Source of the DNA: Dictyostelium discoideum | Lineage: Eukaryota | Assembly (NCBI GenBank): GCA_000004695.1 | Contig: CM000152.2 | Location: forward strand, 1,152,001-1,216,000 | Reading direction: 5' to 3' | DNA length: 64,000 bases | Part shown: in pieces, positions 9,694 through 15,049 of the stretch | Position numbering within the stretch: the first letter of the stretch is position 1 | Layout of the letters: every line of letters begins with the position of its first letter | Notes under the pieces: model-generated | The model's input: the letters and a program-made list of their open reading frames with translations, nothing else | What the model was told of the DNA's origin: nothing | Database searches by the model: none | Position numbers and translations under genes: made by a program

Positions 9694-12600
9694 TTAATTT
9701 AAACTTTCAATAAAATCTTTTAAAGTTTTTAAAATTTCATTAAAAGTGAAACCATCGATTGGATTCCAACATTTATGAATAAAGTTTTTAATGTTTGGAT
9801 CAATTTTATCTAAACCTATTGATGGTTTTTCTTGGCCAAATTTGCGAGTATCACCAACTAAAATTTCATCAATTAGTAATTCATAAGATAAGACTGCAAA
9901 TGAATGAATATTATACTTTAGTGAACTACTATTATTACTATTATTACTATTATTATTATTATTATTATTATTATTGTTGTTGTTATTATTATTATTATTA
10001 CTATTATTACTGTTATTAAAATCATTGTTTTGTTTTGGATCTCTTATAATTGAAATTTCTCTGGTTAAATTAATTGGTGTATCAACTCTTTCTATATAAT
10101 TATTACAAGCTAATCCTTTAATAGTTTTACTTGATGTTAGATCTAATACTTTAGCACAAACCTCTGCATTTTCATTGGTATCATAAAGGAAAATATTTCT
10201 AGCTCTTAGAGTTTTTTGAATGATTGAACTTTGTTGAAGGAATTTACAACCTTTGGCAACATCAATAAGAATTCTAATCTTTTGAGTGATTGACATTTTT
10301 AGTTTCTTTTTTGAAATTATATAATCCAAACTTCCAAGGGGTGGATATTCAAAGGCTAAACATAAATAATCCTTTGAAATTACACAACCAATCAATGGTA
10401 AAATATTTTGATGTTTTAATCTACTAATAATATTTAATTCTCTATAAGCTTCTTCACAATTTTTTGTTTTTAACTTTATCAATTTAAGTAAAGCATTTTT
10501 ATCTCCAACTGTTCCTCTATATAATATCTCCCATGAATATTTCTCTATCAACTCTTGGAAATGAATATCATTAAAATCCAATCTTGTCGAGGATTCACTT
10601 TCAACCTTTATTTTGAGTAGAGTATACATTTCTTTAATATTATTTGAATTGATTTGAATTGAAAAATTTTCAAAAAACCTTGTTGTACAATGTAAAGTAA
10701 TTGAAAATTTTATTGAAAATGTTTCACCTGGACCAAGATCAAATGATGAATGATCTGATGTAAAAGTGGCTGAATGATTATCCATTGGTAAAATTAAAAA
10801 TGCTGTAAATCTTATTGTTGAATCATTTGTAATTGAAAGAGTATCATAATAGGTTTCACCTAATTTTGCTTTTCCATTAATTAAACCAAATGTTATTATA
10901 CTTTGATTAAACCTTAATGGGAAATTTGAAAAATCTTTAAAATCTGATAATGCGCAACATGTCAATATATCATTTGTTGTTCTAAATGAAAAATCTAATC
11001 TCTTTTCTCTTTTTAATATTTCAAATGCTAATTTTTGAAATTCTAAAGTTTGAAATTCATCTGGAAATGTACTATTTATAATTGGTATTGTATCATTACT
11101 AATTTCATCAATTTTAAAACTTTCTAATTTATTTGAATAAATTTGATAATTATTATTACCATTACTGTTACTATTACTATTACTATTACTATTACTATTA
11201 ATATTAATATTACTATTACTATTACTATTATTATTACTGTTACTATTATTATTATTATTATTATTATTACTATTACTATTACTATAATTACTATTACAAT
11301 TACTATAAATAATATTATTACTATTATTATTATTACTATTATTATTATTATTATTATTATTAAAATAATTATTATTATTTAAACTTTGATTTTTAAATTT
11401 ATATCTATTATTATTTTTTGGTATTTGATTATTAAATATTGAATCTGATGATATTGTATCTAATATTGATATTGATGGATAAGATGAATGACTTGTAATT
11501 TTTGGTAAAACTTTAATTTCAATTTCATTATTTTGGGCATATTCAATATCTTTATTTGATTTTGAGAGGAATTGAGATAATCTTTTTCTATGTTTAACTA
11601 TTAAAATTGTAATGATTGATAAAGCCAAAGATCCTAAAACTATTGATAAAACAATTGCCAAAATAGCTGGTTTACTAGCTTTAACACTTTCAATGGGTAA
11701 TAAGGTTGGTGTTATTGGATCAATAATTTGAGGTAATGAATCACTAACTGAAAAGATTGCCAATGATGTTAAATAAATATCACCACGACTTGTGAATGAA
11801 ATATTTAAAAAATCGAGTGATTGTGTGTTATTATAAACAAATGTTAAATTTTTTGAAAAAGGTTGATCGCCAGCGAATGGTTCCATCACTAAAACTGGAT
11901 TTTTTTGAATAGATACAGATAATGGACTTGAATATTGATCGATTGGTTTATAAAAAGTGAAAAATAATTGAACTTGTAAAGTTGCTATTGATTTATTAAT
12001 AAATAAATCAATTATAACTGGATCATATTGAACATCTGATGTAATTCCCCAAGAAAATAAACTATTTAATGTTGATGAGGCTGTAACATTTGGTAAACCA
12101 CCAACATATTTTGCATTACTTGAAAGTTGGCAACCTAAAGTTTTTATACAACCACCTTGAAATTTTAAACCATCCAATTCATTTATTTTATTATTATTAT
12201 CATTAACTAATTGATTATTATTTGTTGTTGTTGGTGTTGATGTTGATGTTGATGTTGATGTCGATGTTGGTGTTGGAGTTGGTATTATTGTTGTTGATGT
12301 TGGATCAATCATTTGCCAACCAGCATTAAATAAAGATTGTCCATAAACAGTTATAATTGGAAAATCAATTATAAAATAATAACTTGAATCTTTAGAATAT
12401 TCATTTTTAATTGTAACACGAATATTATGATTACCTAATTTTTCAGATACATAAAGAAAACTACATTTTGTTGAGATTGGATTATATTGAACCTCTTTTG
12501 ATTCCATACCATTGGATGAGAAAATACAAATGATTGGAGTTTTTAAACCCATATTATTCAATTTAACTGAAAGAGAAACTGAAGAATTGAAAAACATTTT

Positions 12601-14399
12601 ATGAGGTTCATTTGGATAAACAGTTTCAACTTTTAATGAATCCAAAACACTTTTACTAAAATAATAAATTGGAGTAATCGATGACCCAAATACTTTTTCA
12701 GGTGGTTCAGTTGTTTCTGGTGACCCATAAATATAAGTATTTTGAAAGTTTGTGACTGTAGTTGTTGTTTCATCAAAAAACTTTTGTGTTGAAGTTAAGT
12801 TTGTATTAAAACTTGAATTTATAAAATCTAATCTTGAAACTGTACCATTGAATGAAAAATTTTCGGTTGCATTTAAATTATTAAATACTAATGCACTATT
12901 TGGTAAATAAGCTGAAACTGTATCTGATGCTACTAAATCTTTAATTGTAAAAAATCTTCCTGGTGAATTACCATTATTATTAATATTTAAAAGATAATGA
13001 TTTTGTGAATTATTATTATTATTATTATCATCATTATTATTATTTTCATTATTAATATTTAATAAGTTAAAATTGTTTGTATTATTATTATTATCATTAT
13101 TATTATTATTTAATTTATAAAAATAAGTTGAATTATTAATTTTAAAATCAACAGGATATTGAATTAAATTTGAAAATAAAATTGAAGTATTTGTACAAGG
13201 TGAGTAACAATCATTATCAAAACCTGTTATAATGGACCTATTACCAATGAAATTAAAATTAAGAGCAATCAATTGAGAAATAAAAGTATCATTTATTGAT
13301 TGAACATTTGGAGATAATGAATAGATTCCATTACCTTCAAATCCATAATCCATACTAAAAGGTGAAGGAAAATTGATAGGGGAATTTAAACCGAACGGTT
13401 GTGGTAGTGGTGGTATTAAAAAGTAATGATTTAATTTTGATTTTATAAATTCAGTGCCATATTGAGCGATTAAATTTGAACCTGATTTACTAACTATTAA
13501 ACTCTCTGATAATGATACATTTGAACTAACGAAAATGAGTGGTGCTCTAGATTCTTTAACTCTATCAATGATAGCACAACCTTTTATAACTACACTATTT
13601 GAAAATTCTATATACAATGAGTTTCTAAATCTTTGATTTTCACCCTTTATTATATCGATCACTTGATTTGGTTTATCATTTGAGAAAATTAATTTCGTAT
13701 CATTATAAAGTTTATTGGTGGTTTTACCTATTGAATCCAATGTAAAATTTTCAATTTGAACTTGTGAATCACCAGTTATATATATAGATGATCCAACAGT
13801 CGATGTAGAATCTATAAATGATTCACTTGAACCACCTAATAAATATTTACAATTAAAATGAACTATTATATTTTTATCATTTTTTGAAATTGGTAAACAA
13901 TTGGTTCCTCTTAATGATGACGATGATGATGATGTTAAATTAATTTTATCATTACTTGCTCCAAATGAAAATGAACATGTTTGACCTTCTGAAATTTGTT
14001 GACTATAAATTGTAACTTTTGAACCTAAATATATATTGTTTGTCAATGATCCTATTTTTTTGAAATCTTCAATTTGTAATTGATAATCATCAATTCTAGT
14101 GGCTTGGAAAATTCTTTTTTTCTCTCCAATCAATGATAATGATCCTCCCAAAACCATCATACCTGGAAAGAAATTAAATGGATCCATTTTTGAATTATAA
14201 GGATCTAAATCTGTAAATCTGATACTTGATTTACTATTTAATACACCACCTGGTAATATAAATAAAGCTCCAACATTAAAAAATGATATACCTTCTGGAA
14301 TTTCTAATGTTCCTTCAATACATAATACATTAATTTTATAAATTGGTATTCCACCATTACCAACTCTGTATTTCATTTTTGTCCCTATTTAATAATTAT

Positions 14400-14439
<40 letters not shown>

Positions 14440-14498
14440 ATTAGTTATTTTTGACCTTCATAGTTTTTTTTTTGATTTTGATCAGTTTTTTTTTTTTT

Positions 14499-14531
<33 letters not shown>

Positions 14532-14856
14532 CGAAAAAAAAAAAAAAAAAAAAACAGTGATAAAAATTTTATATAGGTACCTCTTGTTATCATTAAATTT
14601 GAAGATTCTTGTGCACCGGGAAATGATGATCTACCAAAATATAATGAACCAGGTATGTTTTGAATAGTACCTTCACAAATATCAGGATAAAATAAATCAT
14701 GAAACGATGATGAATATATGGTTTTATTATTTCTTTCGATCTGAATTTTTGAAAATTGTTGAAATTTATCAATCTTTTTTAAGTTATAATATCCAGGTGG
14801 AGTATCAATTAATTCACATTCTGAACCTATTTTTAAAAATTAAAAGTTAGTATTAT

Positions 14857-14887
<31 letters not shown>

Positions 14888-15049
14888 CAACCCAACATAT
14901 TGGAAAAAACCAATAATAATTATCAGAATTGAATCAAAAAAAAAAAAAAAAAAAAAGATAAAAAAAATCAAAAAATCAAAAAAAAAAAAAAATTGCCTAC
15001 CTATTAATAAAAAAACAACAAAAAAGATAGATAATAAAATTTTTTTCAT
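9694..15049 (-). CDS. Receptor-like type-I membrane protein with a signal peptide, a large Asn-glycosylation-rich extracellular region with beta-helix/G8-like repeats, one TM helix, Asn-rich linkers and a C-terminal degenerate (pseudo)kinase domain; exons 15049..15001, 14826..14581, 14384..9694 (about 1660 aa)
   Basis: Exon 1 encodes the signal peptide [16 protein letters not shown] and ends in a GTAGGC donor. Exon 2 is an 82-codon open frame between an ATAG acceptor and a GTACCT donor, and exon 3 starts after a TAAATAG acceptor; the phases 1/1 join cleanly. The TM segment is [25 protein letters not shown]. The kinase fold is retained (glycine-loop remnant [32 protein letters not shown], subdomain [14 protein letters not shown]) but HRD is replaced by QKT in [13 protein letters not shown] and DFG by DLT. 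Confidence 0.7.

Follow-up and report, generated by a model that had tools for sequence, protein, structure and literature searches.

We analysed a window of 64,000 nucleotides (nt) of the Dictyostelium discoideum genome (contig CM000152.2, positions 1,152,001 to 1,216,000; coordinates below count from the first letter of the window). A three-exon gene runs on the minus strand from 15049 to 9694, and the features described below lie on this strand. Its spliced coding sequence of 4986 nt is in frame and specifies a protein of 1661 amino acids (aa). The product was compared with published Gdt1 over the first ~420 aa and three motif strings. Over the ~420 N-terminal residues printed in Table S2 of the 2006 kinome paper (PMC1420674) it was identical to Gdt1 (gdtA, DDB0215003), and the identical stretch spans both exon junctions. 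The strings at the VAIK, HRD and DFG positions likewise were identical to the Gdt1 entry in this table. By these sequence identities the locus is gdt1, the gene on which the GDT family of the TKL group was founded. The gene is known, named and characterised; its division into three exons and its assignment as a pseudokinase have both been published before. An earlier note, made from the letters alone, had described a receptor-like pseudokinase at this position. This observation is not new because the locus is gdt1, which was rated inactive on the same motifs in the kinome paper.

Exon 1 (15001..15049, 49 nt) contains the start codon and the signal peptide (aa 1-16 and the first base of codon 17), as seen in the sequence, the spliced translation and hydropathy; here, too, the printed Gdt1 N-terminus is identical. 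Introns 1 (14827..15000, 174 nt, 13% GC) and 2 (14385..14580, 196 nt, 11% GC) both have GT..AG borders and are backed by the published Gdt1 protein and by orthologues in two related species (see below). Between them, exon 2 (14581..14826, 246 nt) encodes an 82-codon N-terminal ectodomain module which starts with TPPGYYNLK and contains Cys20 and Cys67. The module is kept across the GDT paralogues and is 84-97% identical in the orthologues; in the paralogue alignment Y12, Y13, Y46, P47 and C50 (ectodomain numbering) are invariant. According to the spliced translation exon 3 (14384..9694) is one open frame of ~1560 codons, including the stop codon at 9694..9696. This is the architecture which the earlier note had proposed, a signal-peptide exon, a Cys-containing 82-codon module and a block of about 1560 codons, and the intron borders, the reading frame and the published protein across both junctions agreed with it throughout.

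In a hydropathy analysis only two strong hydrophobic segments were detected, aa 2-24, i.e. the signal peptide, and aa 1004-1028 (11596..11670), corresponding to the one transmembrane helix that had been predicted. It is followed by a juxtamembrane cytoplasmic segment and a long Asn/Ser-rich linker (aa 1031-1212, 11044..11589) with indels between species. Asn-rich spacers, also noted before, occur in the ectodomain as well as in the cytoplasmic linker and the C-lobe of the kinase domain. With a signal peptide, the shared gdt_ex ectodomain, a single transmembrane segment and a C-terminal eukaryotic protein kinase domain the protein has the composition of a GDT family member. Every match in a homologue search was a Dictyostelium GDT protein, e.g. 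DDB_G0285895 (growth-differentiation transition protein 5, gdt5); these paralogues did not exceed 40% identity.

The kinase domain is of the TKL type and extends over aa 1366-1661 (9697..10584). Pfam reported a match to PK_Tyr_Ser-Thr near the C-terminus (E=4.8e-19). The domain was aligned with the solved Dictyostelium Roco4 kinase from the PDB and with the GDT family, and was compared with Table S2 (PMC1420674). In these alignments and in a motif scan the glycine-rich loop GxGxxG (GKGGFG in Roco4) was degenerate and read EKYSWE (10528..10545). For the remaining motifs the two alignments and Table S2 agreed. VAIK, present as such in Roco4, was ALLK with the β3 Lys kept (10483..10494). HRD was QKT (10210..10218), by which the catalytic Asp is replaced by Thr; the downstream Asn in RARN was kept (IQKTLRARN vs VHRDLRSPN in Roco4). 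DFG was DLT, with the metal-binding Asp kept (10135..10143). Furthermore, the family alignment revealed D220 changed to N (NIHSFA for DVYSFA), R280 changed to G (GFTF for RPSF) and, after the APE-equivalent TRE of the activation segment, an Asn-rich insertion of ~40 aa (9925..10053), which was modelled with a predicted local distance difference test score (pLDDT) of ~30. In summary, gdt1 has kept the β3 Lys (Lys72), the αC Glu (Glu91, YRELN), the catalytic-loop Asn (Asn171) and the DFG Asp (Asp184), and has lost Asp166 of HRD, the Phe-Gly of DFG, the glycine-rich loop, Asp220 and Arg280. No other HRD, DFG or G.G..G motif was present anywhere in the kinase domain; a genuine HRD or DFG elsewhere, which the earlier note had named as grounds for its refutation, thus did not turn up. 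The substitutions of HRD by QKT and of DFG by DLT, on which the earlier note had based its call of a catalytically dead receptor kinase, were confirmed by the Roco4 and paralogue alignments, and the kinase is predicted to be dead. In the kinome paper Gdt1 is classified as 'kmc' and inactive, with ALLK, QKTLRARN and DLT and the remark "multiple insults". The term 'kmc' stands for kinase-motif-containing, i.e. at least three conserved motifs are missing; of all domains in the kinome just three were graded in this way (PMC1420674).

Are the dead motifs maintained? Syntenic gdt1 orthologues were located by walking from the aconitase orthologues. They lie between aconitase and phosphatidylinositol 3-kinase (PI3K) in D. 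cf. discoideum (locus L002) and D. firmibasis (locus L003), and both were assembled from the syntenic loci. The D. cf. discoideum orthologue (1699 aa, 92% identity to gdt1) has the same three exons, that of D. firmibasis (1573 aa, 70% identity) has one extra intron; both are intact. The extra intron (74 nt, GT..AG, L003 18201-18274) is located inside the ASH-like domain described below (...HSTTK / FFENF...) and is missing in D. discoideum and D. cf. discoideum. The degenerate motifs were kept as EKYSWE/EKFSLE, ALLK/ALIK/ALVK, QKT/QKN-LRARN and DLT, with QKN at the HRD position in D. firmibasis. The ratio of non-synonymous to synonymous substitutions (dN/dS; Nei-Gojobori, gdt1 vs the D. firmibasis orthologue) was 0.18-0.19 in the pseudokinase and 0.19-0.22 in the G8-like and β-helix regions of the ectodomain. 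The linkers gave 0.87-1.1 (cytoplasmic Asn linker) and 1.3 (Thr/Ser/Pro linker). Because of the low ratios and the retained dead motifs we conclude that the dead kinase is a conserved functional module and not a product of decay; its motifs are fixed under purifying selection across species.

The best homologue match overall, the D. firmibasis protein P0001, was rejected as the gdt1 orthologue. It is not syntenic and its N-terminus matches that printed for Gdt9. It is located on the same chromosome (CM069765.1, 3245769-3270788; locus L001), ~130 kb or 39 locus tags away from the gdt1/aconitase locus. The public gene calls for the two orthologues (L002 14127-19552; L003 14778-19270) have no Pfam match on record, and the D. 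firmibasis call of 1472 aa is shorter than our assembly.

The cytoplasmic part contains a further domain. A model of aa 1213-1661 (pLDDT 71.5) displayed a seven-strand β-sandwich followed by the kinase fold. The sandwich (aa 1250-1365, 10585..10932), modelled with AlphaFold2 at a pLDDT of about 76-94 per 10-residue block, is of the Ig type, resembles ASH/HYDIN domains and is positioned directly before the kinase; dN/dS was 0.31. The match of gdt1 to Pfam ASH (PF15780) stayed below threshold (E=0.0044; 17.6 bits, cut-off 27). Two GDT paralogues matched HYDIN_VesB_CFA65-like_Ig (PF22544) with E=9.4e-5. A profile of the domain found no match among PDB sequences.

The ectodomain was modelled with AlphaFold2 using 20 paralogues in the alignment. 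The model is all-β with a pLDDT of 70 and a predicted template modelling score of 0.64. Behind the exon 2 module we distinguish a G8-like region (aa ~87-200, 14080..14617, a span that includes intron 2), a right-handed parallel β-helix (aa ~201-520, 13120..14079), an Asn-rich low-complexity insert (aa 521-575, 12955..13119; pLDDT <50, dN/dS 0.61), a middle β-rich region set apart by its predicted secondary structure (aa 576-790, 12310..12954; dN/dS 0.31), a mucin-like Thr/Ser/Pro-rich linker evident from the sequence (aa 791-830, 12190..12309; pLDDT ~30) and a membrane-proximal β-sandwich of the jelly-roll type (aa 831-985, 11725..12189; dN/dS 0.29). With the ectodomain model Foldseek returned local jelly-roll matches only (CBM35, CBM6, MAM), which probably correspond to the modelled membrane-proximal domain. 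The predicted β-helix itself superposed on solved β-helix proteins. Top structural neighbours were polysaccharide lyases, epimerases, glycosidases and phage depolymerases; Vag8, PfbA and pertactin also were among the matches. This substantiated the proposal of a β-helix-like ectodomain.

Is this β-helix related to known families? The N-terminal 500 residues of the GDT ectodomain were turned into a profile, with which 1.84 billion representatives were searched. Besides the GDT family, distant proteins were retrieved with E-values from 1e-16 to 1e-3. Eighteen of these distant proteins were scanned with Pfam: 17 contained G8, mostly above the gathering score, and most of the 18 also contained CEMIP_beta-hel. 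The stretch matched by the profile overlaps both domains, with profile positions ~70-180 aligning to the Pfam G8 of the distant matches. The β-helix of gdt1 and these distant G8/CEMIP relatives have a polar motif in common, TTN..YNDT..NQRFR, which is strongly conserved. Pfam itself reported no domain in any GDT ectodomain, and neither a GG domain nor another CEMIP-family domain in gdt1. The label 'G8-like' of the earlier note therefore stands at the level of profile matches to G8 proteins, not as a direct match to the Pfam G8 model. The data support a gdt1 ectodomain that is a β-helix related to G8 proteins by fold and by transitive homology. The gdt_ex ectodomain, described in 2006 only as Dictyostelium-specific (PMC1420674), seems to combine a divergent G8 with a CEMIP-type β-helix, judging from profiles and models. 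The ectodomain had further been called heavily N-glycosylatable. It does contain 23 NxS/T sequons, yet composition-preserving shuffles contained 21.2 ± 3.9. The count is what composition predicts; therefore the impression reflects an N/S/T-rich composition and not an enrichment.

The earlier note had considered receptor-architecture kinases unusual in amoebozoa. In Dictyostelium they are not: the kinome paper reports nine receptor kinases of the TKL group, six of them GDT proteins with a common ectodomain (PMC1420674). Gdt9, Gdt2 and Gdt4 share with gdt1 the signal peptide, gdt_ex, the single transmembrane segment, the ASH-like β-sandwich and the TKL domain at 35-44% identity. Unlike gdt1, which has lost these motifs, they still contain VA(V/I)K, HRD and DFG, and the kinome paper lists them as active (PMC1420674). 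The closest paralogue looks like Gdt9, based on shared N-terminal and kinase motifs. In several other paralogues (P0002, P0004, P0005, P0006, P0008, P0013 and P0015) HRD is degenerate (NCN, RCN, HCD or HGD) and DFG is kept; among these the VAIK Lys is lost as well (VVLR, VAVR). From the aligned motifs the loss of catalytic residues seems to be recurrent and independent in the GDT family. Another set of ~950-1180 aa (P0014 and P0017-P0020, including gdt5) consists of the ectodomain without a kinase domain, with a transmembrane segment detected in P0014 and P0017. Therefore, the GDT family includes kinase-less receptor-like forms.

What does gdt1 do? Zeng et al. in 2000 reportedly isolated gdt1 on account of an overexpression of discoidin I and a premature development; the phenotype is said to be cell-autonomous and the C-terminus to be kinase-like with altered core motifs. 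In a 2021 mBio paper Gdt1 and Gdt2 are named as proteins that negatively regulate the growth-differentiation transition, with Zeng et al. (2000) cited for this role, and cells without Gdt2, or without Gdt1 and Gdt2 alike, show a reduced sensitivity to polyphosphate (PMC8262924). We propose, with a probability of roughly 80%, that gdt1 encodes a 1661-aa type I receptor-like pseudokinase which acts as a non-catalytic restraint on the transition from growth to differentiation and whose ectodomain responds to a cue that probably is a glycan or another polymer. In feeding cells the β-helix would bind this extracellular cue, and the cytoplasmic β-sandwich and the pseudokinase would pass the signal on as a scaffold or as an allosteric partner, with no phosphotransfer involved. 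Such a signal would repress early developmental genes and in this way delay the onset of differentiation. Inferred in this proposal are the kind of ligand and that the signalling is non-catalytic.

Several points weigh against it. Pfam G8 (PF10162) was without a match at E<=1 in the 21 GDT ectodomains scanned, gdt1 included, and the ectodomain profile did not match any PDB sequence. The relationship to G8 is built on transitive profile matches with E-values from 1e-9 to 1e-3, and the structural models are of medium confidence. Four transmembrane segments reportedly were predicted by Zeng et al. in 2000, which conflicts with the single segment seen here. The conserved Lys, Glu, Asn and DFG Asp may permit nucleotide binding or an atypical activity.

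The four conserved residues, present in both orthologues as well, are also an argument that gdt1 is an atypical yet active kinase, which uses a non-canonical catalytic geometry, as has been claimed for some former pseudokinases, and signals by phosphorylation. The purifying selection on the domain fits such an enzyme, and the kinome paper cautions that alternate active-site geometries exist (PMC1420674). Yet a Thr stands in for the catalytic base Asp (in D. firmibasis an Asn), no glycine is left in the Gly-rich loop, D220 and R280 are lost, a disordered Asn insert of ~40 aa follows the activation segment, and the domain is one of the three 'kmc' entries of the whole kinome (PMC1420674). We consider an active kinase quite unlikely. 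That the degenerate motifs and the long low-complexity inserts are those of a decaying, non-functional copy is effectively refuted: the frame runs through 1661 codons without interruption and its splice sites are canonical, in two species syntenic orthologues are intact and show these substitutions, too, the folded domains have a dN/dS of about 0.2, and Gdt1 is described as a negative regulator, a gdt1-/gdt2- strain having been used (PMC8262924). In view of the dN/dS values and the intact orthologues the decay reading was rejected.

The fold neighbours of the ectodomain allow another explanation, a membrane-anchored polysaccharide lyase or hydrolase of the CEMIP/TMEM2 type. The phenotype would then arise by remodelling of an extracellular polymer, and the cytoplasmic part would serve only trafficking or regulation. 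The lyases, epimerases, glycosidases and depolymerases among the top structural matches and the distant relatives with G8, CEMIP_beta-hel and the common polar motif are compatible with an enzyme. However, the same fold is used by pure binding proteins and adhesins such as Vag8, PfbA and pertactin, and no catalytic residues could be mapped on the ectodomain. The conservation of the ASH-like and pseudokinase domains (dN/dS 0.2-0.3) argues for transmembrane signalling, and the reportedly cell-autonomous phenotype is better reconciled with a receptor than with an effect on secreted matrix. An ectoenzyme is in our opinion very unlikely. The preferred reading, a non-catalytic receptor, can be extended in a speculative way. 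The GDT ectodomain might be a true homologue of the polysaccharide-binding G8/CEMIP β-helix, by which Gdt1 senses a linear extracellular polymer that reports on food or on the density of cells, for example a glycan of bacterial or amoebal origin or the polyanionic polyphosphate; the dead kinase and the ASH-like domain might relay occupancy allosterically to an active partner. In this specific form the idea is unlikely. If true, amoebozoa would have built a receptor class out of a carbohydrate-enzyme fold, independently of the receptor kinases of animals and plants.

Downstream of gdt1 and convergent with it lies a class I PI3K, which ends at 7209 and contains RBD, C2, PIK and catalytic domains. 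The convergent arrangement is as described in the earlier note; the gene presumably is pikA. The upstream neighbour on the same strand is an intact mitochondrial aconitase (16705..18747, minus strand). Its exon has 40-44% GC vs ~20% in the surrounding DNA. The aconitase orthologues in the sister species are 96-98% identical, and synteny was anchored on this gene. Between the stop codons of the PI3K and gdt1 (7210-9693, 2.5 kb) short plus-strand open reading frames are located at 8363-8599, 8699-8923 and 9147-9599, none of which had a Pfam match. The segment ~8707-9383 is 88% identical to L002 20045-20723 of D. cf. discoideum; in D. firmibasis the spacer is only ~600 bp. The downstream gene call in L002 (19721-22583) has a product of 5092 aa and no Pfam match on record; probably a small gene was merged with the PI3K. 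Possibly the interval holds a lineage-specific small gene. A decayed cluster of reading frames, as proposed earlier, found no support, considering the intact aconitase upstream and the partial conservation of the spacer in the sister species.

With the genetics of gdt1 dating from 2000 and the inactive kinase catalogued in 2006, our data add little that is new for the gene itself, and the classification of the locus is unchanged. The added value is modest and consists in the fold assignments, the ASH-like domain, the membrane-proximal jelly-roll and the conservation of the dead motifs across species. A gdt_ex of the G8/CEMIP type points to a glycan or polymer as ligand of the GDT receptor family, and the results on fold and conservation provide concrete hypotheses for a ligand search.

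How does gdt1 compare with known systems? CEMIP, CEMIP2 (TMEM2) and bacterial proteins with G8 and CEMIP_beta-hel likewise have an N-terminal G8-like segment followed by a right-handed β-helix with the shared polar motif, and they, too, are extracellular or membrane-anchored. In contrast to them gdt1 does not match the G8 and CEMIP_beta-hel models of Pfam and is without GG domains; it does not have the combination of G8, β-helix and GG that, together with hyaluronan depolymerase activity, characterises the CEMIP/TMEM2 family, and it is not known to be an enzyme. Conversely, CEMIP and TMEM2 do not possess a cytoplasmic pseudokinase. Receptor pseudokinases exist in animals and plants, e.g. HER3 and the receptor-like kinases of the BIR2/SOBIR type. 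Like gdt1 they are single-pass receptors with a ligand-binding ectodomain and a kinase fold devoid of catalytic residues, which is thought to operate allosterically or as a scaffold. The gdt1 ectodomain is a predicted β-helix, unlike the L-domains of the EGF-receptor family or the leucine-rich repeats of the plant receptors, and gdt1 has its independent origin in an amoebozoan TKL family.

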